Assembly: GCA_043821645.1 (NCBI GenBank)
Contig: JBDRCO010000111.1
Span: 64,001-128,000 of the forward strand
Direction: 5' to 3'
Length of the DNA: 64,000 bases
From: Pseudomonadota bacterium
GTDB taxonomy: Bacteria; Myxococcota; JACRCW01; JAFGSX01
Shown: positions 1 through 34,970 of the stretch, one piece after another
Numbering within the stretch: the stretch's first letter is position 1
Layout: each line of letters begins with the position of its first letter
Notes under the pieces: generated by a model
What the model was told of the DNA's origin: nothing
Seen by the model: only the letters and a program-made list of their open reading frames with translations
Databases searched by the model: none
Translations under genes and position numbers: made by a program

Positions 1-117
1 GGTCCCTTCGTCGGCCAGGACCAGGCCGGGCAGGTTCAGGAGCAGTCCGAGGCCCACTCCCAGCAGGGTCCTGGTGCGTTGCCCTTTCGGATGGAGACGG
101 GAGAGGGACAGGGGCAC
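1..117 (-). CDS. 5' end of a putative secreted protein running off the left edge (partial)
   Basis: Minus-strand frame from GTG at 117 reads ..RLHPKGQRTRTLLGVGLGLLLNLPGLVLA-DEGT, a basic plus hydrophobic signal-peptide pattern with an Ala cleavage site; open to the window edge. Start uncertain. Confidence 0.35.
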   Translation of the reverse strand, partial: MPLSLSRLHPKGQRTRTLLGVGLGLLLNLPGLVLADEGT

Positions 118-331
118 GGGAACAGGCGAAGGACTGCAGTGTGGTATGCGCCAGACAGACATCGGTCTCCGGTTCGGGTTCGGGGTTACACGGGTGTGTC
201 GCGTCGAGCGATGAAGCGACGTTGCACGGCGACGGCCTCATCATAGCGCAGCGAGCGCCCAGGTCCACCCCACGTCTTGGCAGGGGGCCTGCGCGTGCTA
301 GCATGTGGGCTTCAACGCCCCGGGGGCCGGC

Positions 332-1828: not shown

Positions 1829-2108
1829 GATCCTTCTCAGAAGTTGCACCGAGGCGATGCGCCACTGCGTGCGCCGCGGTGTGTCGTCGAACGGAGCGTC
1901 CAGCGTCGGTGCCGTCGTCCCATCGCAGGCGAGGCCACGCCGAATTCCTTCGGGGCGGTGTGCCCTTGAAGCCCGCGCAAAAAAACCGGATGCCCGTCGG
2001 CAGATCAACGCTGGGTGTGGCAGGAGCAGGGCACGCTTCAGCTTGACGGTGTTCGCCGCGTCAACGAGCCTAGTCGAGGGCCGGTGCGTCTGCACCCGGA
2101 GGTCTCGC

Positions 2109-7053: not shown

Positions 7054-7064
7054 GGAGAGAAGGC

Positions 7065-17095: not shown

Positions 17096-17824
17096 GTGAC
17101 AGATCCGGTCGACAGACGCCCCCTGGCCGTGGTGCTGCTCTCCGGTGGCATGGACTCCTGTGTCACCGCCGGCATCGCGGCCCGGGACCACGAGCTGGCC
17201 CTGCTTCATGTCAACTATGGCCAGCGCACCCAGCGCCGCGAGCTGCGCGCTTTCGAAGCCATCGCCGACCACTACCTCGTATCCTGTCGTCTGGTGGTCG
17301 ACTTACCGGCCATTGCCCACGTCGGCGGCTCCAGCCTTCTCGCCGGCGGCCCGGCCGTGCCCGACGCCGCCTTCGTCGAGGGACAGATCCCCTCGACCTA
17401 CGTCCCCTTCCGCAACGGTCAGATCCTCGCCGTGGCCGCGGCCTGGGCCGAGGTTCTGGAGGCGCAGGCGATCTATGTCGGAGCGGTGGAGCAAGACAGC
17501 TCCGGCTATCCAGACTGCCGGCGGCCTTTCTTCGACGCCTACGAGCGCGCCATCCAGCTGGGCACAGGGGCGACCTCCCTGCTGCGCATCCACACCCCCC
17601 TGGTCGAGCTGAGCAAGGCGCAGATCGTCCGCCGGGGCATCGATCTCGGCGCGCCGCTGCACCTGACCTGGTCCTGCTATCGCGACGAGGACCTGGCCTG
17701 CGGGCGCTGCGAGTCCTGCATCCTCAGGCTGCGCGGTTTTGCAGGTGCCGGGGTTGACGATCCTGTTCCCTATCAGGACCCCGCGACGGGGCCAGGATCC
17801 ACCCTGCCCCCGCGCGTCGATTGA
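17096..17824 (+). CDS. queC: 7-cyano-7-deazaguanine synthase
   Basis: AVVLLSGGMDS, NYGQR, TYVPFRN, SGYPDCR, TWSCY..ACGRCESC..R zinc motif. GTG start inferred. Confidence 0.95.
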   Translation: MTDPVDRRPLAVVLLSGGMDSCVTAGIAARDHELALLHVNYGQRTQRRELRAFEAIADHYLVSCRLVVDLPAIAHVGGSSLLAGGPAVPDAAFVEGQIPSTYVPFRNGQILAVAAAWAEVLEAQAIYVGAVEQDSSGYPDCRRPFFDAYERAIQLGTGATSLLRIHTPLVELSKAQIVRRGIDLGAPLHLTWSCYRDEDLACGRCESCILRLRGFAGAGVDDPVPYQDPATGPGSTLPPRVD

Positions 17825-17880
17825 CCGGGCCGATCGCCGCTTGCTACAAAACCAGCACCATCCTGTTCAAGGGGAATGCC

Positions 17881-19524
17881 ATGCCTCGCCTCTGCCTGCC
17901 GACCCGCGCTCTCACCGCCCTGTCCCTGGTGCTGTTGCCCTTCGCAGCCTGCGAGTGCGACGAGATCGGCGATCTGTCCGCCCTGGGCGCGCTGGAACCG
18001 GCCACCCACAACTTCGGTCCTGTGGTGAGCGGCGAGCGCTGCGTGGCGCAGATCAGCCTGCGCAATGATGGCCAGGCCGACTTGACCGTCAACGAATCCA
18101 AGTTCGTCGACAGCAGCGGCAACTTCGCCATCGACGGCATCGTGCCGGCCTTCGTCAGCGCCTTCAGCTCCGATGTGGTGGCCGTGGCCTACACCGCGGG
18201 CACGCCGGGAACCACCTCCGAGGGCGCGACCCTGTGGCTCAAGACCAATACCCCCGAGAACGACGGAGTGCTGCAGGCCGCCCTGCGAGGCACTCCCGTG
18301 GCAGGGCTGTCCGCCATGGTGGGAAGTTCCTGCGACGTCGACGGCACAGCCACCGCACCCTGCAGCGACCTCAACTTCGGGGCCACGGTGGTCGCCACCA
18401 CCAGCCCTGGCGTGCTGCGCACGGTGCGCATCCACAACGACGGAACCTCCACCATGACGGTGGTCGAGCCCGTGGTCCTGGACAATGCGGACTTCACCCT
18501 CGACAGCGCCCGCGTGCCCTCTGCCGACGGCCTGGGTGGTCTGGTCGAGGTCACCCAGTGGCCTCTGCAGCTCGAGCCCGGCAAGGGCCAGTGCGGCGTG
18601 GACTCTGGCAACGCGGTCACCTTCGTCGAGCTCAGCGTGCGCTACCTGCCCACGGATATCGGCGCCGACGCCGGGCGGCTGCGGGTCGACACCGATGCCG
18701 CTATCACACCGTCGTACGTGGAGGTCGGCCTGGTTGGCATCGGCTCGGGGGATGGCATCGCCACCGACCCGGACTTCGTGAACTTCGGCGAGGTGGCGGT
18801 GGGGCAGAGCTCGACCAAGAGCGTGCGGGTGTTCAACCTGCGGCTCGACCAGGCACGCATCAACAACAGCTGCCTCGACACCAACCGCGACGATGTCTGC
18901 GATATCGACTGCACCGCGATCAACGACCAGGCCGTGCTCAGCTGTGGCGTCGAGAAGAGCGATGGCAGCCACGAGGGCAAGGGCTTCGTGCTCGAGCCCG
19001 CCGATGCCATGGCGGGTGGTGACGACGAGCGCACCGTCAAGATTCGCTGGGCCCCGGATGCGCCTGGCGCCCTGCGCGCACAGCTCCTCCTCGACACCGT
19101 GCTTGGCGGGGGTCGGGTGTGGAAAGTGCTGGTCAACGGAGGTGTGGCGGGTACCTTCACTCCGAGCAGCGACCCGGTGGTCGTCGTCGCCAGCGGCACC
19201 CCGCTCGCCGGTCAGGCCAGCTTCACCGTGACCAACACCGGGGCGGCCCCCCTGACCATTCGCCAGGTCAACTTTGCCGGATCCAGCTCCATCACCGGGG
19301 AGTTCACCTTGACCCGCGCCGGCGACGGCAGCTTCAGTGTCAATGGCACGACGCCCTGGACGGGGACCCTGACCTTGCAGCAGAACCAGAGCGAGAGCTT
19401 CACCCTCGATTACCTGAACAGCGGTGTGGTCAACTGCGACAGCTTCGATGTGCACTGGTTCCACGACGGTGACGGCCAGGATCCCTATATCCTTGGCGTC
19501 GAGGTCGACGGCGACAACTGCTAG
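17881..19524 (+). CDS. Choice-of-anchor-D / Ig-like (ASH-type) repeat lipoprotein
   Basis: Lipobox FAAC-EC; repeated P..[ND]FG.V...N.G...L Ig modules. Confidence 0.8.
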   Translation: MPRLCLPTRALTALSLVLLPFAACECDEIGDLSALGALEPATHNFGPVVSGERCVAQISLRNDGQADLTVNESKFVDSSGNFAIDGIVPAFVSAFSSDVVAVAYTAGTPGTTSEGATLWLKTNTPENDGVLQAALRGTPVAGLSAMVGSSCDVDGTATAPCSDLNFGATVVATTSPGVLRTVRIHNDGTSTMTVVEPVVLDNADFTLDSARVPSADGLGGLVEVTQWPLQLEPGKGQCGVDSGNAVTFVELSVRYLPTDIGADAGRLRVDTDAAITPSYVEVGLVGIGSGDGIATDPDFVNFGEVAVGQSSTKSVRVFNLRLDQARINNSCLDTNRDDVCDIDCTAINDQAVLSCGVEKSDGSHEGKGFVLEPADAMAGGDDERTVKIRWAPDAPGALRAQLLLDTVLGGGRVWKVLVNGGVAGTFTPSSDPVVVVASGTPLAGQASFTVTNTGAAPLTIRQVNFAGSSSITGEFTLTRAGDGSFSVNGTTPWTGTLTLQQNQSESFTLDYLNSGVVNCDSFDVHWFHDGDGQDPYILGVEVDGDNC

Positions 19525-19808
19525 GCTCTTTTCGCCGGTATCCGAGTACCTGATGCCGTGGCCAGTGCTCAGGCGAAGGCTGGCTACCCACGCGACCTTT
19601 GTGCGTCACGATCGCCGGGCTGCGATCTCGGGTCCTCGCCCCTGCACAGGTCCGTTTCATCCCATAACAGTGGGTCGGCGCCCTGAAACGGCACCCCGTC
19701 GCGTTGAAAAGGCGTTGTTTTCCGGACTGTTGTGATCTCGCACACCAATGTCCCTGTGCCGTCGATAAGATATGTATAGGGGCGGTCGTGGTGGATTGGA
19801 GCCGGACC

Positions 19809-21821
19809 ATGCGACGCTACGCTGCATTCTTGATGACCAGTGTCCTGGGTGCCGGGCTCGGCTGCTCGCCAGCCGTGGTCACCGGGAGCAACTGCAAGAC
19901 CTCCCTGGACTGTCCAGCCAGCAAGGTCTGCGTCGACGGGCTGTGCCAGGATTCCACGCGCGTGGCCTGCACCAGCGACGCCGTGTGCCTGCCCCTGGGC
20001 GCCACCTGCATCAACGGCTTCTGCTCGACCACCTCGATGGTGGATGCGGGACCCGGGGAGGACGCGGCCAGCGGCACCGACAGCGGCACCATCGTGTCCG
20101 GGCAAGGCATCATCGCCGTGGACACCGAGCTGCCCATCGACTTCGGCGACCCTCTGTTCGGGGCGTCGGTGGTCCGGGTGCTGACCGTGCGCAATGCGGG
20201 CGACGAGCCCCTGCACATCTACCGGGTGGGCCGGGTGCCGGGCACCAGCGACGAATTCGCCCTCGATCCCGACGGTGCCGCCGCGGATTCGGTGCTCCTG
20301 CCCGAGCAGACCCTCGACGTCACCATCACCTACGTACTGGCCGATGGTGAGGCGGACATCGGCGAGCTCTTCGTGCTCAGCGACGCGGCCTCGTGCGCAC
20401 AGTTCTGTCAGGATCCGCACAACATCCGCGTGCCGCTGTATTCGGAGTTCAAGGGCGCCCGCAATCTCGACGTGACCCCGGCCAGCCACGACTTCGGTTT
20501 CGTGGTGGGCGGACAGACCAGCCTGTTTGCGCCCTTCACCCTGAGCAACGAGGGCACCCTGAGCAAGGTGCTCACCGTCGGCGACGTGCGCCTCGAGGGA
20601 ACCGATGCCTCCCACTTCGGACTGCTCTTCGATCCCTTGCCCTACTACCTGACGCCTGCGGGCAGCCAGATCGTCCGCGTGCGTTATGCGCCAGGCAACA
20701 CCGCCTTCCACACGGCCGAGCTGGTGATCGAGGCCAACAGCGACGATCCCGAGCGCCAGGTCGTGCGCGTGCCGCTCACCGGACGCTCGGTCCCCTCGGC
20801 CTCGCTGTCCGTGGCCAGCCCCCTGGACTTCGGGGTGGTCGAGGTGGGGCAGGCCTCGGTGCGGACCACCACCGTGCACAACGGTGGCGGCATGGCTGCC
20901 ACCATCACCTCGCCCGAGCGCTTCGAGTTCGGGGACCAGGGCTTCTCACTGGTCAGTCCTGTGCTGCCGCAGATCGTACAACCTGGACAGCAGGTGACCT
21001 TCACCTTGCGCTTCGCCCCGGCCAACGCCGGTGACAAGGGCGACAATCTGTTTTTGGACCACGACGCGGCTGGCTCGCCGCTCACCGTCGGCATGACAGG
21101 TCGGGGCAAGGACCCGCCCCAGGGCTACAGCAGCCTGCGCATCGAGCAGCGGTTCTCGCGGGCCCTGGCCGGGACCGGCTGCGCGTTCCAGACCAATTAC
21201 CAGAACGTGGATCTCGAGGTCGTGGCCGGCGGTGCCATCTGTGACAAGAACGCGGGCGGCTGCCAGGCCGATGTCTGTGCCTGCAATCTGGGCAGCCTGG
21301 GCAGCGCCACCTGGTCCTGCAACAACTGCGGTGGTGGTACGGCCTCGTCGGAGATCGTCTCCAACTTCGGCTCGGGCGCGGACGGCTCGCTTGACGTGCG
21401 TGCCTACTACTTCGATGCCTGCACCGCGGGCTACTTCGGGGTCTCGGGGGCGGCCTTGCAGGCCGTATGCTCCTTCCCGGGCACGCGCGAGGCCTGCTTC
21501 CCCTACGAGGTCTTCAGCCAGGCCATCTACGTCGAGCCGTGCCAGTACACGGACCACTGCATCTCCGAGAGCCTGTGCATGGTCTATGTGCCGACCCTCG
21601 CCAATCGCTGCATGTCGACGGCCGCCACCCAGGTGCGCACGATCATCTCGCTGTCCCAGGGCACGAGCGCAGATCGCACGGTGGTCTTTTGCACCGATCT
21701 GCAGAGCCTGTACGAGCGGCAGGCTGTGGCCCGGATCGAGCGCGCGGCCGGCCTGTTCAACCTGATAGGGCCCCTGGGAAGCTCGCGGGAGATCGCGCCC
21801 AGCGACCCCTGCGGTTTGTAG
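19809..21821 (+). CDS. Choice-of-anchor-D repeat lipoprotein with Cys-rich N- and C-terminal domains
   Basis: Lipobox GLGC; CxxxxDC-type modules; three DFG..RNxG Ig repeats; Cys-rich C-terminal domain. Confidence 0.8.
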   Translation: MRRYAAFLMTSVLGAGLGCSPAVVTGSNCKTSLDCPASKVCVDGLCQDSTRVACTSDAVCLPLGATCINGFCSTTSMVDAGPGEDAASGTDSGTIVSGQGIIAVDTELPIDFGDPLFGASVVRVLTVRNAGDEPLHIYRVGRVPGTSDEFALDPDGAAADSVLLPEQTLDVTITYVLADGEADIGELFVLSDAASCAQFCQDPHNIRVPLYSEFKGARNLDVTPASHDFGFVVGGQTSLFAPFTLSNEGTLSKVLTVGDVRLEGTDASHFGLLFDPLPYYLTPAGSQIVRVRYAPGNTAFHTAELVIEANSDDPERQVVRVPLTGRSVPSASLSVASPLDFGVVEVGQASVRTTTVHNGGGMAATITSPERFEFGDQGFSLVSPVLPQIVQPGQQVTFTLRFAPANAGDKGDNLFLDHDAAGSPLTVGMTGRGKDPPQGYSSLRIEQRFSRALAGTGCAFQTNYQNVDLEVVAGGAICDKNAGGCQADVCACNLGSLGSATWSCNNCGGGTASSEIVSNFGSGADGSLDVRAYYFDACTAGYFGVSGAALQAVCSFPGTREACFPYEVFSQAIYVEPCQYTDHCISESLCMVYVPTLANRCMSTAATQVRTIISLSQGTSADRTVVFCTDLQSLYERQAVARIERAAGLFNLIGPLGSSREIAPSDPCGL

Positions 21822-21851
21822 TTCCCGGTTCCCAGTTCCCAGTTCCCGGTT
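21821..21851. repeat. Tandem heptamer array (GTTCCCR)x4
   Basis: gttcccg gttccca gttccca gttcccg gtt, read directly. Confidence 0.9.
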
Positions 21852-21953
21852 GACGGAGCCCACCGCTCGCCCGGTGTTTCGTCGTCGACAGATCGCCCCG
21901 AAGCACGTTGAATCAGCACGCGGGAGGACCGGGCCTGCTCAGCTTGGACGGGC

Positions 21954-21991
21954 AACTCGGAACTCGATACTCGAAACGCAGAACCGGGAAC
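21954..21991. repeat. Degenerate heptamer array, inverted relative to 21821-21851
   Basis: aactcgg aactcga tactcga aacgcag aaccggg aac; 21982-21991 is the exact reverse complement of 21821-21830. Confidence 0.75.
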
Positions 21992-22002
21992 AAGGATCGC
22001 CA

Positions 22003-22758
22003 ATGGCACACCTCAAGGACATCGTGAGCTGGCTGGACCACGAGCTCGACGTGGAGCGGGTGCACGACGTGGCGGTCAACGGGCTGCAGGTCGAGGGCCG
22101 CAGCGAGGTTCAGCGAGTGGTCACCGGGGTCAGTGCCAACCTGGCCCTGCTGCAGGCCGCAGTCGATCGCAAGGCAGACCTGGTGGTGGTGCACCATGGC
22201 CTGGTGTGGGGTGGCATACAGCGCATCACCGGACCACTGCGTACCCGGATCCGACTCGTGCTCGAGCAGGAGCTGTCCCTGGCTGCCTACCACCTGCCTC
22301 TCGACATGCACCCCGTTCATGGCAACAACGCGGGGCTGGCAAGCAGCCTCGAGCTGCAGGACGTGCAGCCCTTTGGCCTGTACAAGGGACAGCTCATTGG
22401 CCTGCGCGGCCAGCTGGCGAAGCCACTTCCCATCGCCGAGGTGCTTGCCCGGATCCGGAGCCGGATTCACGATCAGGCCCAGCTGCTGCCTGGCGGGGAG
22501 CATCCCGTGCACCGCGTCGCGGTGTGTTCCGGCGGCGCCGCCGAGCTGGTGTGGGAGGCCATCGAGGCCGGTTGCGATCTGTTCGTGTCGGGGGAGGCCA
22601 CCGAGTTCTCGCCAGCACTGGCAGCCGAGGGTCGCATCCACGTCGTGGTCGCGGGCCACCACGCGACCGAGCGCTCGGGGGTGCAAGCGCTGGCCCGGGC
22701 GCTGCAGCAGCACTTCGGCATCCCCAGCGAATTCGTCGATATTCCTAACGCGCTGTGA
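22003..22758 (+). CDS. ybgI: Nif3-like dinuclear metal center hexameric protein (YbgI/DUF34)
   Basis: NGLQVEG, VVHHG, AYHLPLDMHPVHGNN, CSGG, AGHHATERSG. Confidence 0.93.
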   Translation: MAHLKDIVSWLDHELDVERVHDVAVNGLQVEGRSEVQRVVTGVSANLALLQAAVDRKADLVVVHHGLVWGGIQRITGPLRTRIRLVLEQELSLAAYHLPLDMHPVHGNNAGLASSLELQDVQPFGLYKGQLIGLRGQLAKPLPIAEVLARIRSRIHDQAQLLPGGEHPVHRVAVCSGGAAELVWEAIEAGCDLFVSGEATEFSPALAAEGRIHVVVAGHHATERSGVQALARALQQHFGIPSEFVDIPNAL

Positions 22759-22801
22759 CAGCGGCCGCAGCCTCCTGCAAGTGGCGAGAGCGTTCACTGG
22801 C

Positions 22802-22810
22802 TGTTATCCT
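22802..22810 (+). promoter_or_regulatory. Extended -10 element, probable leaderless transcript
   Basis: TG-t-TATCCT, then 6 nt, then ATG 22817; no SD. Confidence 0.5.
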
Positions 22811-22816
22811 GCAGCC

Positions 22817-23257
22817 ATGAACGTCGCGGCCAGAGCACTCGCACTCACCTCGCTGCTCGCCCTGGCCTGTGCACCGGGAGGCGAGGAACCCGACGATCCT
22901 CCCGTGCTCCGCCTGCGCTCGCCGCTACTGGCGCCCGTCGGGGCCCTGGTGACCTTCGACGCCAGTGCCAGCGTCGACGATCACGGTATCGTGATGTACA
23001 GCGTGCAGTTTGGTGACGGTAGCCCCGAGGCCGAGCTGTCGAGTCCGATCTTCACCCACGTGTACCGCGAGCCCGCCACCTACGAGATCGAGGTGCTGGC
23101 CCTGGACGCTCCGGGACACCGGGACGTGCTGCGGCGGAGCATCACAGCGGTCGAGCGCTACTGGCCGCCGTACTGCGACGACAACCTGCCGTGCGAATGG
23201 GGAGCTCTCTGCGATCAGGGAGAGTGTTTCATCGAGGGTGAGGCCGGCTCTCCGTGA
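22817..23257 (+). CDS. PKD-domain lipoprotein
   Basis: Lipobox LALAC; VTFDASASVDD..YSVQFGDG..HVY..PATY; short Cys-rich tail. Confidence 0.8.
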   Translation: MNVAARALALTSLLALACAPGGEEPDDPPVLRLRSPLLAPVGALVTFDASASVDDHGIVMYSVQFGDGSPEAELSSPIFTHVYREPATYEIEVLALDAPGHRDVLRRSITAVERYWPPYCDDNLPCEWGALCDQGECFIEGEAGSP

Positions 23258-23290
23258 GATCTCACCTGCCGCTGATGTGGTGACCGTGCG

Positions 23291-23995
23291 TCAGGATGCC
23301 GCGGCCGCGGCCGGGTACCACTCCAGGACCTGATCCGTGTTGGGCACGCCGGTGATCTGGGTGCGGCCGTCCCCGACGCGCACCTGACCCTCTGCAATCA
23401 GGCGGACGCCAGCCACGAAAGCCTTCTGTTGCAGCACGCTGATGCGGATACCCAGAGATTCCTCGTCGTCATCGCTCCACACCCGCAGCGCGCTCTGCAG
23501 CAGAATGCAGCCAACACCGCAGTTCTCGTCGAGAAAATGCAGGGTGCAGCCGGTGACGCGAACGCCAGCTGCCAGGGCGTCGCTCAGTGGAGTCTCTCCG
23601 GCAAAGGCAGGCAGCAGCGACGAGTGCATGCGCAACACGCGCTGGGGGAACGCCTGCACCAGCTTCGTGCCCAGGGTCGGGGAGAAGCCTGCCAGGCACA
23701 CCAGCTCGACATCGCGATTCTGCAGGGCCTCGACCAGGGCGGTCTCGTAGGCGTCCGCGCTGTCGAAGGCGTCCTCCGAGAGCACACGGGTAGTCAGTCC
23801 CTGTCCGCGAGCACGCTCGAGGAGGGGGCTTTCCTTGTGGTTGCTCAAGACCAGTTCCACCGAGGCTGCAAAGGCGTTCTGCTGGCAGGCGTCGATGAGC
23901 GCCTGCAAGGTCGCCCCGGCCCGGGACACCAGCAAGCCCAGGCGGAGCGGCGCGCTCGTGTCGCAGGGAGCTCGATCGACGGGCGACGTACTCAT
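23291..23995 (-). CDS. PurN (GAR transformylase)-fold protein lacking catalytic residues
   Basis: Colinear with PurN (LQALIDAC, VLSN, LERAR, CLAGF, HSSLLPAF, GCTLHF, ILLQ), but SGNGSN reads SRAGAT, NIHP reads RMHS and LDGGP reads CGVGC. Confidence 0.8.
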   Translation of the reverse strand: MSTSPVDRAPCDTSAPLRLGLLVSRAGATLQALIDACQQNAFAASVELVLSNHKESPLLERARGQGLTTRVLSEDAFDSADAYETALVEALQNRDVELVCLAGFSPTLGTKLVQAFPQRVLRMHSSLLPAFAGETPLSDALAAGVRVTGCTLHFLDENCGVGCILLQSALRVWSDDDEESLGIRISVLQQKAFVAGVRLIAEGQVRVGDGRTQITGVPNTDQVLEWYPAAAAAS

Positions 23996-24191
23996 GGTGG
24001 CGACCCTCGTTTCGTCCGGCTCGACAGTGGCTCGCGCCGTCGCTGCGGTCAAGACTTCGCACGCGGATCCGTCGCGGACAGCCCTCTGAAGAGCACGCGG
24101 CGTGGAAGGTCAGACTCGGCAAAACCGGGCATTCGCCGTGCGGAGGCCAGGGTGATTTACAGTGCGCCACCGCTCGCGCTAGGCTGCCGCC

Positions 24192-24905
24192 ATGGAATCT
24201 CTGGTGGTTGTCGCCTGCGCCCCAGGCCTGGAGGCCTTGACCGCGCGCTTGCAGGTTCGCTTCGAGGCAGCGGACGCTGCCGCTGCGTCCCTGGCCTTTG
24301 TCGACGCGGCCGCGGCACTGGCGCGTGGCTTCAAGCAGAGCACTGTGCCCAGTGACGGCAACCGCAAGGTGGTCTTGCTGGTGCGGCCCGGCCAGGGTGA
24401 CGAGAGCCTGGCGCGGGTGCTCGAGGGTGTGCCCGCGCGGACGGTCGAGGTGCCCGCAGACCAGGTTGATGCGGCGGTGGCCGAGGCGGTGCGCCACGAG
24501 GTGGATAGGGGCGCCCGCTCCGTGGTGGTGGCGTCGGTGTTGGCGCCAACCCTGCCTCCCTACCTCCTCGATCACGCGTTCCGGGCGCTGCTGTTTCACG
24601 ACCTGGTGGTGGGACCTGACTTCGCCGGTCATACCTACCTGCTGGGTGTGCGCCGCCCGCCGCCGTCCTTTGCCCTGGATCTGCACTGGGATCCGACGCC
24701 TGCCGTGAGTACGGTCCTGGACGCCGCCGCGCGCGGCACCAACATGACCATGCTGCCCTTCTGGTACCAGCTGGGCGATGACGCCTCGCTCGCCTGGCTG
24801 GAGACGCACTTGCGAGTTCTTCGCGGTCGCCCATGGCTGCTGGCCTCGGCCTTGCCTGACCTGGTCGAGCGGGCGAACCGCAGCGAGAGCCCACTGGCTC
24901 CCTGA
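24192..24905 (+). CDS. DUF2064 / TIGR04282-like (CofC/MobA-fold) protein, degenerate
   Basis: PTLPPYLLDHAFRALLFHDLVVGP...YLLG..LHW..LPFWY matches the family layout, but the conserved Lys/Asp motifs are absent. Confidence 0.65.
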   Translation: MESLVVVACAPGLEALTARLQVRFEAADAAAASLAFVDAAAALARGFKQSTVPSDGNRKVVLLVRPGQGDESLARVLEGVPARTVEVPADQVDAAVAEAVRHEVDRGARSVVVASVLAPTLPPYLLDHAFRALLFHDLVVGPDFAGHTYLLGVRRPPPSFALDLHWDPTPAVSTVLDAAARGTNMTMLPFWYQLGDDASLAWLETHLRVLRGRPWLLASALPDLVERANRSESPLAP

Positions 24906-24938
24906 ACGGGCCGCGTTGCCGCATCCATCGAGGGTCGC

Positions 24939-27710
24939 ATGTCCATCCGCAAGCTGCTCAGTCGCGCCGGTCCACTGGCCATCGCCTTGAGCTTCGCCCT
25001 GTTCTTTGGTGTCGTCGACTGGCTGCAGGAAGAGCGGGGTTGGCACGACTGGTTCGGCTACAAGCTCGAGCTCAAATTGCTCGACCAGATGTTCGAATGG
25101 CGGGGACCGGTGGCTGCCGATCCCAAGGTCGTCATCGCTGCCATCGATGAGCGCAGCCTCGAAGCCTACGGTCAGTGGGGTAGCTGGCGTCGCACACTGT
25201 TCAAGCTCGGTCTGGATCGCCTTCGGGCCGCCGGTGCGGACACCATAGGCTGGGACATCGTGTTCGCTGGACCCCGCCAGTACACCGACACCTCCATGGG
25301 GCAGCGCCTCGAGAACATCCTGCGCGATATCGATCCCGGAGCCACTTCGGAGGGGCTCGGTACGGGTTTCGCGGAGGTCGGAGCGTCCCTCGACCACGCC
25401 ACGGACGCCCAGAAGAAGGCCACGCTTTCGGGCGACGAACTGCGCCGGCTCGATGCTTCGGTCAAGGAACGGCATCGCAGCGGCATGCTCGCTGCCGGCA
25501 GCGACACTGCCCGAGCCAGGCAGCGTCTGGATGGTCTGCAGCAGCTTTCCCAGCGCTTCGTCAGCAAGACCGAGGCCCTGGTCGAGAACATCCGCCAGGA
25601 GGCCGAGGGCGAGAGCCCGGATCAGACCCTGGCCGAGGGCATCGAGGAGCATTCTGGCAACACGGTGCTCGGCTTCATTGCGCTGTTCGAGGAGGAGGAA
25701 GAGGAGCTGTCGCGGCCCGACGTGTCCGACCTCAACTTCTGCCGCGTGGCCAGCTCGGCCCTGGACAGCATTGCCGTGGGCTGGGGCTTGCCCGGTGAGG
25801 GTGAGCAGGTTGCGGTCCCCATCTTCAAGGAGAACTCGAAGCCGGGCTTGCAGACGCTGATCCCCAAGGTCAAGGGAGGCTTCGTCTCACCGAATCCCGA
25901 GTTCGCCAACGCCGCCCAGAATCTGGGCACCTTTGCCCTCAATCCTGACCCTGACGGCGTGTGCCGCCGCCTGCCCTTGCTGGTCTACTACACCACCGCG
26001 GCGCCGCCGCGGCCGGCCTGGACCGAGGAGTGTACCTACGAGGTGGGCAACTTCATGTTGCCCTCGCTGGCCCTGAGCACAGCCTCGCAGCTGCTGGAGG
26101 CGCCACCTGTTCCGATCGTGCATCCCATCTTCAAGCGCGGCATCCAGTCGGTCAGCTTCTCGGTGTCCCGCGATGTGATCGAGCGCCTGTGCCGGCTTCG
26201 CAAGGGGACGATGGACGACGCGACGCTGCAGGACTGCGTGCGCAGCTTTCCGGGCGAACGCATCGCCGACAGCGTGGTCATCGACCTGCCAACCACACCC
26301 ACCGGCGAGATGCTGGTCAACTACTATGGACCCGAGAAGACGACCTTCCCGCGCATCTCATACTCCGACGTCGTCGCTGGCACCTTCAAGCCCGAGCTGG
26401 TCAAGGGCAAGGTGGTGCTGGTCGCCGCCACCGCCATCGCCACCCACGATCAACGCGTCACACCCTTCAGCGCCTTCGCACCTGGTGTCGAGGTTCACGC
26501 CGCTGCGATCCAGAACATCATCGACGGCCGCTTCTTGTCCCGACACCCCCTGGCCATCCCCTTCGAGTTGCTGTTCATGCTCTCGGTGGCCTTGCTCCTC
26601 GGGCTGCTGTTGCGCCGGGTCAGCGTGCCCATAGGCATCGGCGTGACCCTGGCGATCGCGGTGGCCTACTGGGCCATCAACACCTTCGTGCTGTTCCGGC
26701 AGGGCTACTGGTTTTACCTGGTGCTGCCTTTCTTGCAGATCTTCCTGACCTGGGCCGGCATCACGGTGTTCGGGTACCTGGTCGAGGGTCGCGAGAAAAA
26801 GCGGATCACGGCGCAGTTCGGGACCTACGTGTCACCCGATTACGTCAGGGAACTCATCGACAACCCCGACGTGATCGGCCTCTCCGGCGCCGAACGTGAG
26901 ATGAGCGTGCTGTTCTCGGACATCCGCGGTTTCACGACCATGAGCGAGCGGCTGGCCCCTGAGGAGCTCACGCGCTTCCTCAACGAGTACCTCACGCCCA
27001 TGACCTACTGCCTGCAGCGCAACCAGGGCACGCTCGACAAGTACATGGGCGACGCCATCATGGCCTTCTTCGGTGCGCCCAAGTGGTTCGACGACCACCC
27101 CGTCAAGGCCTGCCTGACGGCGATCGAGATGATGGACGAACTCAGAGACCTTCGAAAGAAGTGGCGCAGCGAGGGCAAGCCCGACATCGACATCGGCATA
27201 GGGATCAACTCGGGCAAGATGCGCGTCGGCAACATGGGCTCCGAGGCCATGCGCAACTACACCGTGCTCGGCGACAACGTCAACCTGGGTTCCCGGCTCG
27301 AGGGCCTCAACAAGCAGTACGCCACCAACATCATCGCCAGCCAGACCACCTTCGAGGCGGCTGGAGCGTTGATCTACGGTCGCGAGCTCGACTCGGTGGC
27401 GGTCAAGGGCAAGAAGGAGCCGGTGCGCATCTTCGAGGTCATGGGCCGCGGCCGGCCCGTGGACTGGCAAGCCGAGCTCATTGGCGCCTTCGAGCGAGGT
27501 CTCGTGGCCTACCGCAAGCAGGAGTGGGAGGAGGCCCTGGAGCTGTTCAAGACCTGCCTGCGCATTCGCAAGGAGGCCACGGGAACCCCCGACGGTTGCA
27601 GCCACATGTACCTCGAGCGCGTGCACCTGCTGCAGAAGAATCCCCCCCGGCCCGGACTGGGACGGGGTGTGGAAGATGACCACCAAGTAGCGATCACGAC
27701 GCCGAGGTGA
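24939..27710 (+). CDS. CHASE2-domain class III adenylate cyclase; the conserved C-terminus lies in another frame, ending at 27690
   Basis: CHASE2 motifs (AIDERSL, PDPDGVCRR, GKVVLV, PGVEVHA), 3 TMs, LFSDIRGFT, DKYMGDAIMA, YTVLGDNVNLGSRLEG, VKGK. Lys/Thr specificity residues suggest ATP. Confidence 0.92.
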   Translation: MSIRKLLSRAGPLAIALSFALFFGVVDWLQEERGWHDWFGYKLELKLLDQMFEWRGPVAADPKVVIAAIDERSLEAYGQWGSWRRTLFKLGLDRLRAAGADTIGWDIVFAGPRQYTDTSMGQRLENILRDIDPGATSEGLGTGFAEVGASLDHATDAQKKATLSGDELRRLDASVKERHRSGMLAAGSDTARARQRLDGLQQLSQRFVSKTEALVENIRQEAEGESPDQTLAEGIEEHSGNTVLGFIALFEEEEEELSRPDVSDLNFCRVASSALDSIAVGWGLPGEGEQVAVPIFKENSKPGLQTLIPKVKGGFVSPNPEFANAAQNLGTFALNPDPDGVCRRLPLLVYYTTAAPPRPAWTEECTYEVGNFMLPSLALSTASQLLEAPPVPIVHPIFKRGIQSVSFSVSRDVIERLCRLRKGTMDDATLQDCVRSFPGERIADSVVIDLPTTPTGEMLVNYYGPEKTTFPRISYSDVVAGTFKPELVKGKVVLVAATAIATHDQRVTPFSAFAPGVEVHAAAIQNIIDGRFLSRHPLAIPFELLFMLSVALLLGLLLRRVSVPIGIGVTLAIAVAYWAINTFVLFRQGYWFYLVLPFLQIFLTWAGITVFGYLVEGREKKRITAQFGTYVSPDYVRELIDNPDVIGLSGAEREMSVLFSDIRGFTTMSERLAPEELTRFLNEYLTPMTYCLQRNQGTLDKYMGDAIMAFFGAPKWFDDHPVKACLTAIEMMDELRDLRKKWRSEGKPDIDIGIGINSGKMRVGNMGSEAMRNYTVLGDNVNLGSRLEGLNKQYATNIIASQTTFEAAGALIYGRELDSVAVKGKKEPVRIFEVMGRGRPVDWQAELIGAFERGLVAYRKQEWEEALELFKTCLRIRKEATGTPDGCSHMYLERVHLLQKNPPRPGLGRGVEDDHQVAITTPR

Positions 27711-27785
27711 GGAGAAGGCGTCTGCGACACCTCGCGACCTTCCAGACCATGACGGCAAGGGATGGCCGCCCCACCAGGCCCGCGC

Positions 27786-29621
27786 TCAGTGATCGAGGGC
27801 AATGCGCAGGTGCTTGCGCACGCAGCGCAGCGTCGCATCATCCGTGGCCGCATCGGCCAGCACCCAGCGCACGCTCTCGCCCTGCAGATCGACCAGAGCC
27901 ATCACGCCATAGGCCGTGACGACGGGATCGCGGTGCTCACGCATGCGCGCGTAGGTGTTGTACAGGCCCTTGGCCCGACACGCCCACAACACGTAGGCGG
28001 CTTCCTGGGGAGGCAGCTCGGGTTGACCCAGCAGGCCCTCCAGGCTCTGGGGGATGCGCTGGCCAATGGAGATCAGGGCTTCGAGGATGCGCTCGGGCAG
28101 GCCAAAGGCCGCGTGGCTCGGAGTATCAAACAGGGGACGTGGGTCCTGCGTGTGCGCCTCGGCCAGGGCCTTGAGAAGTGGCTCCACGGCTTCTTCACTG
28201 CCGATCCGACCCAGGGCATAGGCCGCACTGACTTGCAGTTCCGGGTCCTTGCTGCTGGCCAGCGCCTCGATGAGCAGTGCGCGGGATTCCAGGTCCGCCA
28301 GGTCGGCCAGCTCGCGCGCTGCCCGCGGTGCCCAGACGCTGGCGGCCATGGGGGCGAGCAGTTCACGCATCCGAGGTACGACCTGATCCCGGGTCAGGCT
28401 CTGTTCTCCGCCACTCTCCAGTGAGAGCACGTAGCCTGGCGCGGTGCTGGCAATGCCCGTGACGCCGAAATTCTGACCGCGCCGTTCAGGCCAGGGCGCG
28501 CGCAGCGAAGTGGTCACGGCGGGCCTAAAAGCTTCAAAGGCAGTCAGGGCTGTCTCTATTTCCTGCACCAGCTCGGCCGGCGCGTGGCGATCCTTGGCCC
28601 GGCGCAGCAGCTTGCGGTAGGCCAGCAGAACCTTGCGACGCAGCGCGCTTTCCTCAGGTGCGAGGTAGGCCTCCAGCAGTGGTGAGCGGCTCAGATCAAG
28701 TTCCCGGGTCGGAGGTCCCAGGCTCATGCCACGCAGGCTGTTCGGTGCAGAGGTCACCCTGCGGTAAAAGAAGTCCGACATCCCCACCATGCGAAGCATC
28801 GCACGCAGACCATCCACACCCTGATCCAGCTGCAGCACCTCGCGATACGCATCCTCGGCCATCGCACGCAGCGCCGCATTGTGTTCGGCCTCGCTGCGCG
28901 CGCGCTGCTGGTCCCCGAGGCGCGCCAGGCAGGTGTCGTCGGAGCGGTAGTCCTGTTCGTGGGCCTCACCGACGCAGAAGTGGGATTCGAGCACCAGCCC
29001 CCTGGCCTCGGAACGCCAGGGTGCGGTGACGCTGGCGGCCAGGGGCACCACCGCCGCGCACGCAGTTCTGGCTGCGACGACCTCATGGCGCGTCAGCGCG
29101 CTCCAACCCCGGCACAGCGACTGCCAGGTCAGGTACAAGGCGCGGTCCTCAAGGTCTTGCTGGGCACGCCGGGAGTCGCACAGCAGCTGCAGTGATGCGG
29201 CATCGCCGGCCGTGCGCAGGTGCTCCGCCTCGACCTGCAAGGCCTGGAGCTTGTCACCGGTCGCTGGTGCGCTGGTCGGGCCTGTCGACGTAGCGGTGTC
29301 GGATTCTCGCCTCTGCGCAGGCAGGGGTGCTGTGGCTGCGGGTGCGGGGGAAGGCGTGCGACGCCTGGGTGTGGCGGGCTGCGGGACCGCGGCAGGTGGA
29401 GCAGAAGACGCCGGGGGTGAAGCAGGCGCTGCGGTGGATGCCGCAGGCGTGGCCACGGGTGGTGTGGCCTGGGCCTCCGCCGGGGGAGCTGCCACACGGC
29501 TCGGCACGGCCGGAGCACTGCTCGGGGTCTTGGGCTCCTCCTGGGCCCTTGTCGTCGACGTCAGGACCCAGGCCAGGAGGACCAGGACCCAGGCGCGATA
29601 CCTCTGCACCCGCTGGCTCAT
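27786..29621 (-). CDS. Secreted protein with Pro/Ala-rich linker and C-terminal HEAT repeats
   Basis: Signal peptide; low-complexity PA region; LIEAL..DPELQVSAAYALGRIGSEEAVEPLLKAL HEAT motif. Confidence 0.75.
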   Translation of the reverse strand: MSQRVQRYRAWVLVLLAWVLTSTTRAQEEPKTPSSAPAVPSRVAAPPAEAQATPPVATPAASTAAPASPPASSAPPAAVPQPATPRRRTPSPAPAATAPLPAQRRESDTATSTGPTSAPATGDKLQALQVEAEHLRTAGDAASLQLLCDSRRAQQDLEDRALYLTWQSLCRGWSALTRHEVVAARTACAAVVPLAASVTAPWRSEARGLVLESHFCVGEAHEQDYRSDDTCLARLGDQQRARSEAEHNAALRAMAEDAYREVLQLDQGVDGLRAMLRMVGMSDFFYRRVTSAPNSLRGMSLGPPTRELDLSRSPLLEAYLAPEESALRRKVLLAYRKLLRRAKDRHAPAELVQEIETALTAFEAFRPAVTTSLRAPWPERRGQNFGVTGIASTAPGYVLSLESGGEQSLTRDQVVPRMRELLAPMAASVWAPRAARELADLADLESRALLIEALASSKDPELQVSAAYALGRIGSEEAVEPLLKALAEAHTQDPRPLFDTPSHAAFGLPERILEALISIGQRIPQSLEGLLGQPELPPQEAAYVLWACRAKGLYNTYARMREHRDPVVTAYGVMALVDLQGESVRWVLADAATDDATLRCVRKHLRIALDH

Positions 29622-29628
29622 GATGCGG

Positions 29629-29910
29629 TCACCCCCACCCAAGACAGGCCCTCAGCATGGTCGAACTCATCAGGAGCAGCAGTAAAAGCACTGCCACGAT
29701 GGCCACGATGCGGTCGGCAAGCCGGCGCCGGGGAGGTTTGTCTGTCCGTGCGGGAAGCACCTGCAGCAGCAGGTAAGCCGGAGGTCCACCCAGGGCGCAG
29801 GCGAACAACCAGAATTCGGGGTCGCGCCGCCTCTCCTGGGCAAGGCGCTGGCCTGCAACCCCGGACAGGGGCCACACCAGCAACATCACCATCAGGACAA
29901 CGAAGCTCAC
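29629..29910 (-). CDS. Small membrane protein
   Basis: Three hydrophobic segments; fills the gap between two co-oriented genes. Confidence 0.55.
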   Translation of the reverse strand: MSFVVLMVMLLVWPLSGVAGQRLAQERRRDPEFWLFACALGGPPAYLLLQVLPARTDKPPRRRLADRIVAIVAVLLLLLLMSSTMLRACLGWG

Positions 29911-31972: not shown

Positions 31973-32087
31973 ATCGGGACAGACCATGCCCAGGCGTCGG
32001 CACATGGTACACTTTTCTGGTCGCGCAGCCTGTTCGCGGGGCGGTGCCCGCCGCTGCACCGGTGGCACACAGAGAGGGCCAGGAGAC

Positions 32088-34970
32088 ATGGGGCGAATCG
32101 GACCCTCAGCGCGCCTGCTGCCCCTGCTACTCGCAGCTCTCTATCCCGGCTGCGAGTGCCAGGAAACGGAGTTCGTTGAACTCCAGGCCACGGCGACCCT
32201 TCCCGAGAACATCATCGATTTCGGTGAGGTCCCCGTCGGATCCGGACGCACGCTGACACGGGTCCTGCGCAATGAGGGCACTGCGGCCCTCGAGATCGCG
32301 GCGATCGCCGTGGAACCGGACAGCGGCGCGTTCTTTGTCGAGGTGGTGCCGGCTCCGGTCGCAGCCCAGAGCAGTGGCGAGGTGCGCGTCACCTTCAGGC
32401 CGGAGCGTGAGGCGAGTTACGAAGCCACGGCCAGCCTGGACACCAACGCACGCCAGGAACCACCTTCGCTGCGCCTGCTGGGACGCGGCGTCACTCCCGC
32501 CATCGAGGTGCACCCGGCCAGCATCGACTTCGGAGCGGTGGCCCTCGGCGCCAGCCGTGTGCAGGTGCTGCGCGTGCTCAACCTGCGCAGTGTGGACCAG
32601 GAGGTCTGGCTGGCCCTGCAGGACGACGGAGCCCTGCACTTCGCCGTGGACGACGGTGGCGAGGGGAGGCGCACCGTGCCCGCGGGAGGCGAGATCCGCG
32701 TCGATCTGCATTTCATCCCACGCCACGGTGGCCGCCATGGTGCAACCCTGCGCGTGGATAGCTGTGGCGATGGTTGCGGCGTGCAGGTCCAGCTCCAGGG
32801 GCGCTGTGAGGTCCCGCGCATCGTGGTGGAGCCTTTGCTGCTGGACTTTGGAACCCTGGCGCCAGGCGCGTCGGAGCAGCGCAGCGTGACCGTGCGCAAC
32901 CTCGGCTTCGGGGATCTGCAGGTCGAGCGCATCGAGGTCGTGGCAGGTTCCCAGAGCTTTGCGGTGGAGCCCGCGTTTCAGGCCGCGATCGTGCCCGAGA
33001 ACACCGAGGTTTCGGTCCTCGTCCGCTGTGCTCCCGAGACGAGCGGGACCGCCAGCGGCCGCCTGGAGATTGCGAGCAGCGACCCGGCCTCTCCGACAGG
33101 CCACGTCGAGCTCGTGGGTCGGCGCCAGGGGGCAGAGCTGCTCGCGGTGCCCGACCGACTCGAGTTTGGCATCGTGCGCGATGCCGGTCCGCATACCCGC
33201 CACGTGGTGCTGGTCAACCGCGGCGACCAGCCAGCCCAGGTGCTGGCGGGGGCTGTGCTGGGAGAAGCCTTCGAGAGCAGCCTGCTTCCCACCTGGCCTC
33301 TCGAGGTCCCCGGGGGTGGCAGTGCCGTCCTGGAGCTGAGCTTCAGCGCGGGCAACCCGGGAACCTTCTTTGGCCGCTTGTCCCTGCACAGCGACGTCGC
33401 CGAGACACCGCTGCTCGAGGTCACGCTGGCTGGCACACGCAGCGACAGCGCCTGTGTCCTGGTCCCGGCGGTCGAGACCGTGCGCTTCGGCAACGTGATG
33501 GTGGGGAGCAGCTCGTGGCAGAACCTGATGCTGCGCAACGAGGGCAGTCAGAGCTGCACCATCCAGAGCCTGGGCTTCTCGCCGCTGCACATCAACGATC
33601 CCGCCTTCACCGTCGAGGCCCCCGTCACCACGGTGGTGGATCCGGGACAGCAGGTGCAAGCGCGTACGGTGTTCGCCCCGACCGAAAGCGGTCCGGCCAA
33701 GGCTGCGATCCAGGTGCGTCTTGAGGGTGGCGTCATGCCTCCCCTGCTGCTCGGGCTCGTCGGCAGTGGCGCCCGGGCCGGGCTCACGGCAGCTCCCCCG
33801 GTGCTCGACTTTGGCACCACCACCGCGGGGTGCGGTCAGGCCGAGCGCATCGTTGCCATCGGCAATATCGGCCAGGTCGAGGCCAACCTCGGCTTCGTGC
33901 GCCTCGAGGCACCATCGACAACTGCCTACCGGATCGTCGAGGGGGGGTGGATAGGGCGGTTGCCCCCGGGGATGAGGCACATGATTCGCGTGCGCTTCGA
34001 GCCGCAGCAGCCAGGGACCCACAGCGGACTGCTCATGGTCGAGGACAGCGACGACGTTGCCGGCGTCGTGGTGCCGCTCAACGGCCTCGCCCTGGCCGCC
34101 AACACGGCGCACCTCACCGAGACCTTCACCGTCGCTGGGATCAGCAAGGTCGATGTTCTGTTCGTCATCGACAACTCCGGGAGCATGCTGGACAACCAGG
34201 ACAACCTCGCGGCCAATTTCGACTACTTCATTCGCTCCGCGGACATTCTCGGACCCTCCATCAACTACCAGATCGGCGTCGTCACGACGGACGTGGCGGA
34301 CCCGCAACAGTCGGGCCGACTGGTGAGCACCCCCCGCTTGATGAACCGCAGCACACCCGACCTGACCGCGCGCTTCGGCGATTCCGTGCGCGTCGGCGCC
34401 ACAGGTTCGGGCTGGGAGCAGGGTCTCGAGGCTGCCCTGCTGGCCCTCAGCCCGCCGCTCATCGACGATCCGATCTACAACGATGGCCTGCTGAGATCCG
34501 ACGCTGCCCTGGCGCTGGTGGTGGTCAGCGACGAGGATGACGGCTCCCCGCAGCCCGTCGACGCGTACGTCGGGTTTCTGCTTGGCCTCAAGGCCGCCCA
34601 GGCCCTGCCGGTGCTGTTCAACGCCGTCACCGGCGGTGTCGCAGGCTGCTCCGAGGGCGAGGTGTGGGCGGATCCGGCTCCGCGCTACGACGACGCCGTG
34701 CGCCAGACCGGCGGACGCTGGATGAACCTGTGCGCCTCCGACTGGGGCAGCGAGCTCGAGAGCCTGGGTGCCAGCATCTTCCTGTCCCGGGGACGGTTTC
34801 ATCTGCAGGGCCAGCCCGAGGCCGGAAGCCTGAGTGTTCGCGTCGACGGGACCGTGTTGCAGCCTGGCCAGTGGAGCTACGACGATGCCTCGCGCACGGT
34901 GATCCTCGATCCGTCTGTGGTCCCGGGTCCGGGTGCGGTGGTGGAAGTGGACTATGTGGTCACCTGCTAG
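32088..34970 (+). CDS. Lipoprotein with six choice-of-anchor-D/Ig repeats and a C-terminal VWA domain
   Basis: AGGAG SD; lipobox-like YPGC-EC; six [DER]FG.....N.. Ig modules; MIDAS motif DVLFVIDNSGSM, VVTTD, EQGLEA, VSDEDD. Confidence 0.88.
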   Translation: MGRIGPSARLLPLLLAALYPGCECQETEFVELQATATLPENIIDFGEVPVGSGRTLTRVLRNEGTAALEIAAIAVEPDSGAFFVEVVPAPVAAQSSGEVRVTFRPEREASYEATASLDTNARQEPPSLRLLGRGVTPAIEVHPASIDFGAVALGASRVQVLRVLNLRSVDQEVWLALQDDGALHFAVDDGGEGRRTVPAGGEIRVDLHFIPRHGGRHGATLRVDSCGDGCGVQVQLQGRCEVPRIVVEPLLLDFGTLAPGASEQRSVTVRNLGFGDLQVERIEVVAGSQSFAVEPAFQAAIVPENTEVSVLVRCAPETSGTASGRLEIASSDPASPTGHVELVGRRQGAELLAVPDRLEFGIVRDAGPHTRHVVLVNRGDQPAQVLAGAVLGEAFESSLLPTWPLEVPGGGSAVLELSFSAGNPGTFFGRLSLHSDVAETPLLEVTLAGTRSDSACVLVPAVETVRFGNVMVGSSSWQNLMLRNEGSQSCTIQSLGFSPLHINDPAFTVEAPVTTVVDPGQQVQARTVFAPTESGPAKAAIQVRLEGGVMPPLLLGLVGSGARAGLTAAPPVLDFGTTTAGCGQAERIVAIGNIGQVEANLGFVRLEAPSTTAYRIVEGGWIGRLPPGMRHMIRVRFEPQQPGTHSGLLMVEDSDDVAGVVVPLNGLALAANTAHLTETFTVAGISKVDVLFVIDNSGSMLDNQDNLAANFDYFIRSADILGPSINYQIGVVTTDVADPQQSGRLVSTPRLMNRSTPDLTARFGDSVRVGATGSGWEQGLEAALLALSPPLIDDPIYNDGLLRSDAALALVVVSDEDDGSPQPVDAYVGFLLGLKAAQALPVLFNAVTGGVAGCSEGEVWADPAPRYDDAVRQTGGRWMNLCASDWGSELESLGASIFLSRGRFHLQGQPEAGSLSVRVDGTVLQPGQWSYDDASRTVILDPSVVPGPGAVVEVDYVVTC

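Follow-up and report, generated by a model that had tools for sequence, protein, structure and literature searches.

The window, a stretch of 64,000 nucleotides of contig JBDRCO010000111.1 from a bacterium of the Myxococcota (assembly GCA_043821645.1), carries at positions 23291-27710 two divergent genes, one PurN-like and one DUF2064-like, the second of which is directly followed by the gene of a CHASE2 class III adenylate cyclase. We read this locus as an operon of a DUF2064 and a cyclase gene, conserved in relatives, in which the former has come to encode a non-catalytic partner of the latter, with a former purN alongside. We give this reading a probability of about 0.5.

The G+C content of the window is 66.6% and, because it is so high, the open reading frame (ORF) calls include many spurious ORFs. 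By codon-position G+C and Pfam matches, three of the ORFs at 23291-27710 are real genes (Table 1). Their G+C by codon position is 0.70/0.50/0.81 (PurN-like), 0.77/0.50/0.82 (DUF2064-like) and 0.63/0.44/0.86 (cyclase), resembling in all three that of other coding ORFs in the window. A preliminary description of this stretch, made from the sequence alone, had reported two full-length ORFs of normal coding bias diverging from a 196-nt spacer, with 33 nt between the second and the cyclase. We confirmed these coordinates and the coding bias, and both ORFs are also intact in relatives. The PurN-like ORF (23291..24052, minus strand) opens at TTG; the ATG at 23995 is the likely start because relatives of about 232-238 aa begin at ATG.

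Table 1. Genes and sequence elements at the DUF2064-cyclase locus, in window coordinates.
Feature	Position	Strand	Remarks
NIF3 gene	21850-22758	+	flanking gene
PurN-like gene	23291..23995	-	234 aa from ATG 23995; ORF reaches TTG 24052
Divergent spacer	23996..24191	.	196 nt, between PurN-like and DUF2064-like genes
Promoter-like pair	TTTACA 24156-24161, 18 nt, TAGGCT 24180-24185	.	just ahead of DUF2064-like ATG
DUF2064-like gene	24192..24905	+	237 aa
Gap, DUF2064-like gene to cyclase	24906..24938	.	33 nt
GAGGG ribosome-binding-like site	24930..24934	+	4 nt before cyclase ATG, read from sequence
CHASE2 class III adenylate cyclase	24939..27710	+	923 aa
HEAT-repeat gene	27786-29642	-	flanking gene

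The DUF2064 gene and the cyclase stay together in related Myxococcota

A genome scan with alignment A4, made of 12 close DUF2064-like proteins, matched 27 stretches, which gave nine loci. Eight are contigs of metagenome-assembled genomes labelled Myxococcota or 'Deltaproteobacteria' (L001-L008). L009, the ninth, is on a contig from Bacteroidota: its DUF2064 gene is generic, has NAD kinase, rhodanese and DUF2461 genes around it, and is accompanied by neither cyclase nor PurN. In L001 and L002 the contig stops at the DUF2064 gene, so that cyclase linkage is not evaluable there. All six loci with downstream DNA (L003-L008) have a cyclase ortholog directly after the DUF2064 gene, with 32-40% identity by tblastn (a whole-protein alignment where the contig allows) and 38-47% in alignment A7. 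In each of the six, the DUF2064 stop and the cyclase ATG overlap as ATGA (L003 4013, L004 3867, L005 10783, L006 9633, L007 6520, L008 7274), which would be a translational-coupling arrangement. The outer flanks vary among the loci, with Crp-like, GAF, lectin/TIG and 3HCDH genes. A Crp-like regulator gene (cNMP_binding plus HTH_Crp_2) follows the cyclase in L004 (6474-7112) and L005 (13281-13964, overlapping the cyclase end). It is absent after the cyclase in L008 and in the window, where no Crp-like gene was found over the whole 64 kb; the remaining loci end too early.

Upstream of the DUF2064 gene and on the opposite strand, purM-purN is present in six of the eight Myxococcota loci (L002, L003, L004, L006, L007, L008). 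These syntenic purN genes are canonical, with the motifs SGSG[ST]NLQ, NVHPALLP and VDTGPIL and scores of 205-224 bits with the PurN model. In L005 no purN accompanies the operon of DUF2064 and cyclase. L001, the contig of the PurN-like protein P0009, resembles the window, with a PurN-like gene directly adjacent to DUF2064 and no purM. The N-terminal extension of the PurN-like clade, RAPC or a variant of it plus PLR[LV], recurs in five of the six canonical syntenic PurNs, L006 being the exception, and is missing from the other three canonical PurNs aligned. Since purMN occupies that place in relatives and the N-terminal extension is shared, we infer that the PurN-like gene descends, in place, from the purN of its own lineage. 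The three-gene synteny considered in the preliminary description thus divides in two: the DUF2064-cyclase linkage holds in the six evaluable loci and in the window, while the PurN neighbour is a canonical purM-purN in six of eight. The two back-to-back pseudoenzymes are not conserved as a unit, the PurN neighbour being apparently ancestral and not recruited.

In L001, two ORFs of 188 and 446 aa (84-1994, minus strand) lie downstream of the PurN-like gene; neither matches a Pfam family, and the window and the other loci contain no homolog of them.

A family 2 glycosyltransferase (GT2) gene lies directly upstream of DUF2064 in L002 (9198-9953), L004 (2065-2958) and L005 (9223-9948). These neighbours were considered as the TIGR04283 partner of TIGR04282 and rejected: their scores, 21-24 bits, are well under the cut-off of 182, and they look like generic AglJ/GpgS-like enzymes.

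The DUF2064-like protein has lost its metal-binding aspartates

The DUF2064-like protein matches the Pfam family DUF2064 (PF09837) with 37.4 bits, above 25.8, and scores 36.8 bits on TIGR04282, far under the cut-off of 134. On the same model, its relatives in L004-L006 reach 150-172 bits, that in L003 83.9 and that in L001 76.5. Its AlphaFold2 (AF2) model has a mean confidence (pLDDT) of 91.8. The best Foldseek match of the model is 3cgx, a DUF2064 structure (E 3.5e-12), followed by FbiD, 3-phosphoglycerate guanylyltransferase, CofC and IspD; 6bwg, 7p97 and 2i5e are among the matches. The model thus predicts a CofC/MobA-like nucleotidyltransferase fold.

In the profile alignment with FbiD (6bwg), the aspartates of the family's GxD and DVD motifs are chain residues 130, 202 and 204 or, minus a 14-residue tag, D116, D188 and D190. 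These three are described for FbiD as a two-Mg2+ binding site (PMC6450877). Generic family members have D/D/D at these positions and the window protein has L117/Q193/G195. Moreover, the N-terminal G-x-VKTRL motif reads EALTARL, with threonine in place of the KTRL lysine. Framework motifs are kept (P119, L121-P122, G141-P142, LPFWY). Without the three aspartates that bind metal and without the KTRL lysine, the protein, by this alignment, cannot work as a nucleotidyltransferase in the way of its family.

A word-indexed search with this protein found one relative (P0004, 70%), and an exhaustive one with HMMER gave 1060 proteins at E <=0.001, 47 at <=1e-10 and 3 at <=1e-30. The aspartate triad is intact (DDD) in L002, L004, L005 and L006 and degenerate in the window and P0004 (LQG), L001 (ERC), L003 (AGD), L007 (TRE) and L008 (RDA). 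Among the seven cyclase-linked DUF2064 genes, window included, three are intact and four degenerate. On a DUF2064 tree of 44 rows, selected out of 131 aligned, this state changes at least three times (bootstrap range 2-4), and the window protein falls, with long branches, within a clade of eight degenerate members (support 100/99).

Dead or intact, 25 members of the subfamily keep E2, D55, N57, R58, E103, R106, R109 and R131 at 92% conservation or more. With M1 added, nine positions are at least 84% conserved in these 25 proteins, which carry a DxNR[KR] motif, and are found in 0-23% of 97 generic DUF2064 proteins. As the same nine residues are kept in dead and live members, the conserved feature belongs to the cyclase-linked subfamily independently of catalysis. 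Fusions among the DUF2064 family matches involve GT2 (2), aminotransferase (2), NUDIX (1) and radical SAM (1) domains, and never a cyclase. A search for fused forms among longer proteins (query A4), which is weak evidence, gave one match, a radical SAM/SPASM-DUF2064 protein and not a cyclase.

The PurN-like protein has very probably ceased to be a GAR transformylase

The PurN-like protein matches Pfam Formyl_trans_N (E 8.7e-39) and passes the curated PurN model TIGR00639 (EC 2.1.2.2; 162.1 bits, cut-off 150.1), under which its clade mates P0009 (146.1 bits) and P0006 (132.5 bits) fall. Its AF2 model (pLDDT 80.5) has solved PurNs as top Foldseek matches, at template modelling (TM) scores of about 0.79-0.9, and is predicted to retain the fold of glycinamide ribonucleotide (GAR) transformylase. 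The clade, P0005-P0011, is monophyletic (support 100/100), has 51-73% identity (alignment A1) and is set off from the canonical PurNs: bit scores fall from 233 to 173, and identity is at most 48% beyond the gap.

The proteins were aligned with 114 canonical PurNs, that is, E. coli PurN (from NC_000913.3) and 113 others; residues are given here in E. coli numbering. Among the 80 columns conserved at 90% or more in the canonical set, 30 are kept by all seven clade members and 17 by none of them, and the other 33 are mixed. Five residues, N13, P109, D144, E173 and H174, never vary among the 114 canonical and the six syntenic PurNs, and every member of the clade has them replaced. The window protein has S12 and R90 replaced as well as N13, P109, E173 and H174. 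We take N13, P109, E173 and H174 to be residues with roles in GAR binding.

Asn106, His108 and Asp144 are given as the formyltransferase triad, including that of formyltransferases of secondary metabolism, and SLLP as a tetrahydrofolate-associated motif (PMC4786211); His108 and Asp144 are also described in PMC3261824. In the window protein Asn106 is replaced by R122 and Asp144 by G160, His108 is kept as H124, and no compensating acid is found near position 144. Its nearest relative, P0006, reads R, R, G at the three positions. Over the clade, Asn106 is kept in four of seven members and His108 in six, Asp144 is replaced in all, and the SLLP motif (SLLPAF) is present in all. To our knowledge, all characterised formyltransferases keep the triad. 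The preliminary description had both proteins lacking their catalytic residues while keeping structural motifs. This is right for the DUF2064-like protein, but its PurN-like neighbour loses two of the three triad residues and keeps His108; the structural motifs and folds are retained in both.

Because five PurN-invariant residues are lost, GAR transformylase activity is very probably gone from the PurN-like protein. Its gene is still conserved, presumably with some other role. Neither purM nor purT nor a second purN was found in the 64-kb window.

Within the clade, P0008-P0011 form a subclade that keeps Asn106 and His108, has Q or L in place of Asp144 and reads L[FL]DYDT (LFDYDT/LLDYDT) in place of LAGFMR. 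This adds two aspartates in the folate-loop region 86-90, a possible compensatory change. P0007 has Glu at position 144.

The cyclase has intact catalytic motifs

The cyclase consists of a CHASE2 domain (residues 41-555, E 9.7e-49), a transmembrane segment reaching to about residue 612, the cyclase domain (653-828, E 3.6e-21) and a TPR-like C-terminal region (about 851-883). The catalytic domain is nearest to Synechocystis Cya2 (2w01, E 8.9e-37) and P. aeruginosa CyaB (3r5g, E 9.9e-36). As had been proposed beforehand, its catalytic motifs are intact: D661, K701, D705, T775, N782 and R786 align to conserved positions of solved class III cyclases, and we take them to be the metal, substrate and transition-state residues of that class. 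K701 and T775 suggest ATP specificity.

Relative to its six orthologs (alignment A7), the window CHASE2 domain has lineage-specific insertions at about residues 113-148, 358-375 and 421-450, and the extreme C-terminus of the protein departs from the conserved W-D-G-V-Y-D-F-K-T-K end of the orthologs.

A proposed non-catalytic partner of the cyclase beside a probable former purN

The core of the locus is a two-gene operon conserved in a group of uncultured Myxococcota, encoding a DUF2064-subfamily protein and then a class III adenylate cyclase with a CHASE2 sensor. In the lineage of the window, the first protein has lost three metal-binding aspartates and the KTRL lysine and kept the charged residues specific to its subfamily. 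We suggest that it most likely acts as a non-catalytic cytoplasmic partner, co-produced with the cyclase, that binds or tunes the cytoplasmic catalytic or TPR-like part of that enzyme. The cyclase itself would sense an extracytoplasmic cue through CHASE2 and, judging by its intact motifs, make cAMP. In its seven-member clade, the PurN-like gene has lost its purM neighbour along with the five PurN-invariant residues. Its place beside the operon would be inherited from an ancestral divergent arrangement of purMN and DUF2064-cyclase, and not the result of assembling a pair of pseudoenzymes.

Neither gene looks like a case of simple decay, since each sits in a deep clade of intact ORFs with the same losses (seven PurN-like and eight DUF2064-like proteins). 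The ORFs of these dead clades are full-length and free of frameshifts at 32-74% identity, and their motifs are sharply conserved, which speaks for constraint more strongly than the substitution rates given below. Conservation of the substitutions among orthologs therefore holds within these clades, and not over all relatives, which include six canonical purN genes and four DDD DUF2064 genes, three of them cyclase-linked; by the criterion of the preliminary description itself, these canonical active sites count against its proposal. The ratio of non-synonymous to synonymous substitution rates (dN/dS, NG86) between window and L001 is 0.46 for the PurN-like gene and 0.71 for the DUF2064-like gene, with dS saturated and third-position G+C (GC3) strongly biased. 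By the same method it is 0.31-0.39 for canonical purN pairs, 0.30 for purM, 0.21-0.34 for canonical DUF2064 and 0.39-0.46 for the degenerate L003 gene against those of L007 and L008.

Several observations weigh against the reading of a non-catalytic partner beside a former purN. In place of the ATGA overlap of the relatives, the window has 33 nt between the two genes and a separate GAGGG. L003-L008 are close relatives (purM 76-81% identical), and therefore the loci represent about three deep lineages and not eight independent samples. Across these lineages purMN adjacency is conserved about as well as cyclase adjacency while the outer flanks vary, and co-regulation of the purine genes with the cyclase operon is possible. 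Three of the seven cyclase-linked DUF2064 proteins (L004, L005 and L006) have all their catalytic motifs intact, and a GT2 gene adjoins two of these three; the ancestral link with the cyclase could therefore be metabolic or plain co-expression and not regulatory. As to the former purN, the best tree groups the PurN-like clade with the syntenic purN clade at a weak support of 69/40. Identity to canonical PurNs is 38-42% for the PurN-like proteins and 43-48% for the syntenic purNs, only about 5 points apart, and this comparison is biased in favour of the window protein by a canonical outgroup picked by similarity to it. Finally, pairwise dN/dS is unreliable here, as synonymous sites are saturated and GC3 is biased: NG86 values are all below 1, and maximum-likelihood dS values of 2-33 are meaningless.

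A rival idea is that there is no present link with the cyclase, the genes being relics with unrelated functions or none and their order reflecting phylogenetic inertia and operon hitch-hiking. The loci do stem from few deep lineages, dN/dS is not decisive, and the DUF2064-like protein scores far under its family cut-off. The motifs were also lost at least three times in the subfamily (bootstrap 2-4), as expected of a dispensable activity, for instance after loss of a GT2 partner: GT2 is present in three loci, all with intact DUF2064, and absent in the other six, five of which have a degenerate one. Relics, however, would not be expected to have intact ORFs without frameshifts over clades of 32-74% identity, confident AF2 models for both proteins and, in dead members, strongly conserved residues specific to the subfamily, nor to keep the ATGA overlap in six of six loci while the outer flanks vary. 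We consider this explanation unlikely.

It is quite unlikely that both proteins are still enzymes with altered chemistry, the PurN-like one moving a formyl or other group to a new acceptor and the DUF2064-like one using a new site built from the charged residues of its subfamily. Retention of His108 (6/7), Asn106 (4/7) and SLLP (7/7), the loop aspartates gained by P0008-P0011 and the Glu at 144 of P0007 are compatible with it, as are the invariant D55, N57 and R58 plus E103, R106, R109 and R131 of the DUF2064 subfamily. However, those residues are not a replacement site, because they are equally present in members with an intact aspartate triad. In the PurN-like protein of the window no compensating acid lies near 144, the nearest relative has lost the whole triad, and the triad is reported in formyltransferases of secondary metabolism (PMC4786211).

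A model that follows the preliminary description has both dead enzymes acting together as ligand sensors or scaffolds that would couple purine/folate or nucleotide status to the cAMP output of the adjacent cyclase. Both proteins are indeed conserved yet non-catalytic, and dead PurN and dead DUF2064 occur together in the window and L001, probably also as P0006 and P0004, whose contigs have the same length of 2303 bp. A PurN or PurN-like gene lies upstream on the opposite strand in seven of the eight Myxococcota loci and in the window, the divergent intergenic regions of about 0-60 nt in L003, L006, L007 and L008 would permit shared regulation, and SLLP and His108 persist in the window protein. 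Against this, the neighbour is an ordinary canonical purM-purN operon in six loci, L005 does without purN, and PurN inactivation is a single event, so that co-degeneration statistics are impossible. Moreover, the residues that bind GAR and nucleoside triphosphates (NTP) are gone along with the catalytic ones (N13, E173, H174 and R90 in one protein, the KTRL lysine and aspartate triad in the other) and only the folate-associated SLLP remains, so that the two proteins are unlikely to sense GAR or NTP in the parental way. As a whole, the sensor or scaffold pair seems to us very unlikely. What survives of that proposal are the conserved non-catalytic ORFs and the tight, repeated linkage of DUF2064 and cyclase, and what falls is the pseudoenzyme pair and its sensing of parental ligands.

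The farthest-reaching version, in which the DUF2064-subfamily protein would be an obligate cytoplasmic subunit of the Myxococcota CHASE2 cyclase and with that a new kind of cyclase accessory protein, a former nucleotidyltransferase repeatedly turned into a pure regulator, and the window purN would likewise have become a non-catalytic part of the module, tying one-carbon/purine status to cAMP, is very doubtful.

Comparison with known systems

The PurN-like protein shares the fold, SLLP and His108 with E. coli PurN (GAR transformylase; PDB 1cde/1c2t), which is encoded in a purM-purN operon whose order in E. coli K-12 is that of the relatives of the window gene. It differs in the changes Asn106 to R and Asp144 to G, in having no purM alongside and in its N-terminal RAPC extension. 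Automated annotation would still label the gene PurN. The DUF2064-like protein has the MobA-like nucleotidyltransferase fold common to DUF2064/TIGR04282 (3cgx) and to the CofC/FbiD guanylyltransferases (6bwg, 2i5e, 7p97). Unlike them, it has neither the metal-binding aspartates nor the KTRL lysine, and it belongs to the subfamily with the DxNR[KR] insertion, with its gene directly upstream of a CHASE2 cyclase.

The CHASE2 cyclases CyaD1, CyaD2 and CyaK of Sinorhizobium meliloti are described as acting through the CRP-family regulator Clr (PMC13001267). Like the window cyclase, they combine a CHASE2 sensor with a class III catalytic domain. A counterpart of their cyclase-CRP pathway may be seen in the Crp-like genes after the cyclase in L004 and L005, whereas the window has none. 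The described CHASE2 cyclase systems also have no conserved upstream DUF2064 partner gene, unlike this operon. A full-text literature search for 'DUF2064' found nothing, and one for TIGR04282, PF09837 or glyco_like_cofC gave soil metagenomes and an iodate reducer among the matches listed. Among those listed for pseudoenzyme formyltransferases in bacteria, none was on PurN by title, and among those for Myxococcota, adenylate cyclase and CHASE2, none described this operon by title or in the beginning of its abstract.

Should the DUF2064 protein indeed act on the cyclase, a widespread family of unknown function would gain its first functional foothold, and accessory proteins would be added to the signalling of CHASE2 cyclases. 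With at least three changes of state, the live and dead DUF2064 versions of the locus form a natural series for studying the passage from enzyme to non-enzyme. The PurN-like gene is an annotation trap: it passes the curated PurN model (162 against 150 bits) although the catalytic Asp is missing along with four further invariant residues. A question that also arises is by which route these bacteria formylate GAR, PurT or a second purN being candidates.

Spacer, flanking genes and other features of the window

The spacers of the window and of L001 (2660-2782) both carry GATTT[A/G]CAG, 17-18 nt and GCTA[G/C]GCTGC. The -35/-10-like pair of the window, which ends 6 nt before the DUF2064-like ATG, would give a nearly leaderless transcript. 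A consensus promoter scan does not call it. Scanning 23000-28000 for promoters and terminators gave one promoter-like site, inside the cyclase gene, and three terminator-like ones, with 0.4 and 2.2 expected, none of them informative. An Rfam scan of 22500-25500 at E up to 1 matched no family, and therefore we see no riboswitch in the spacer. The search for inverted repeats there found only one weak pair, which falls within the DUF2064-like coding sequence.

Besides the flanking genes of Table 1, neighbours include an ORF with a PKD domain, a metallophosphoesterase and several Ig-like secreted proteins. An antisense ORF at 21913-22797 (minus strand, 294 aa) has coding-like codon-position G+C and was rejected as a gene; it is a high-GC shadow ORF, and the plus strand opposite it encodes the NIF3/DUF34 gene (E 1.6e-58).

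Elsewhere, the window holds an RND efflux operon (OEP, HlyD-type and AcrB-type; 4439-10157, plus strand), a Ser/Thr kinase with a PEGA domain (49321-51171, plus) and a GH31 glycosidase (56376-59492, minus). It is also unusually rich in very large secreted repeat proteins (36918-43118, minus; 17821-21821, 31986-34970 and 51262-54825, plus), among which are a 2066-aa invasin-D3/Big_1/thrombospondin-type-3 repeat protein and several HYDIN/ASH/Cep192-like Ig-domain proteins.

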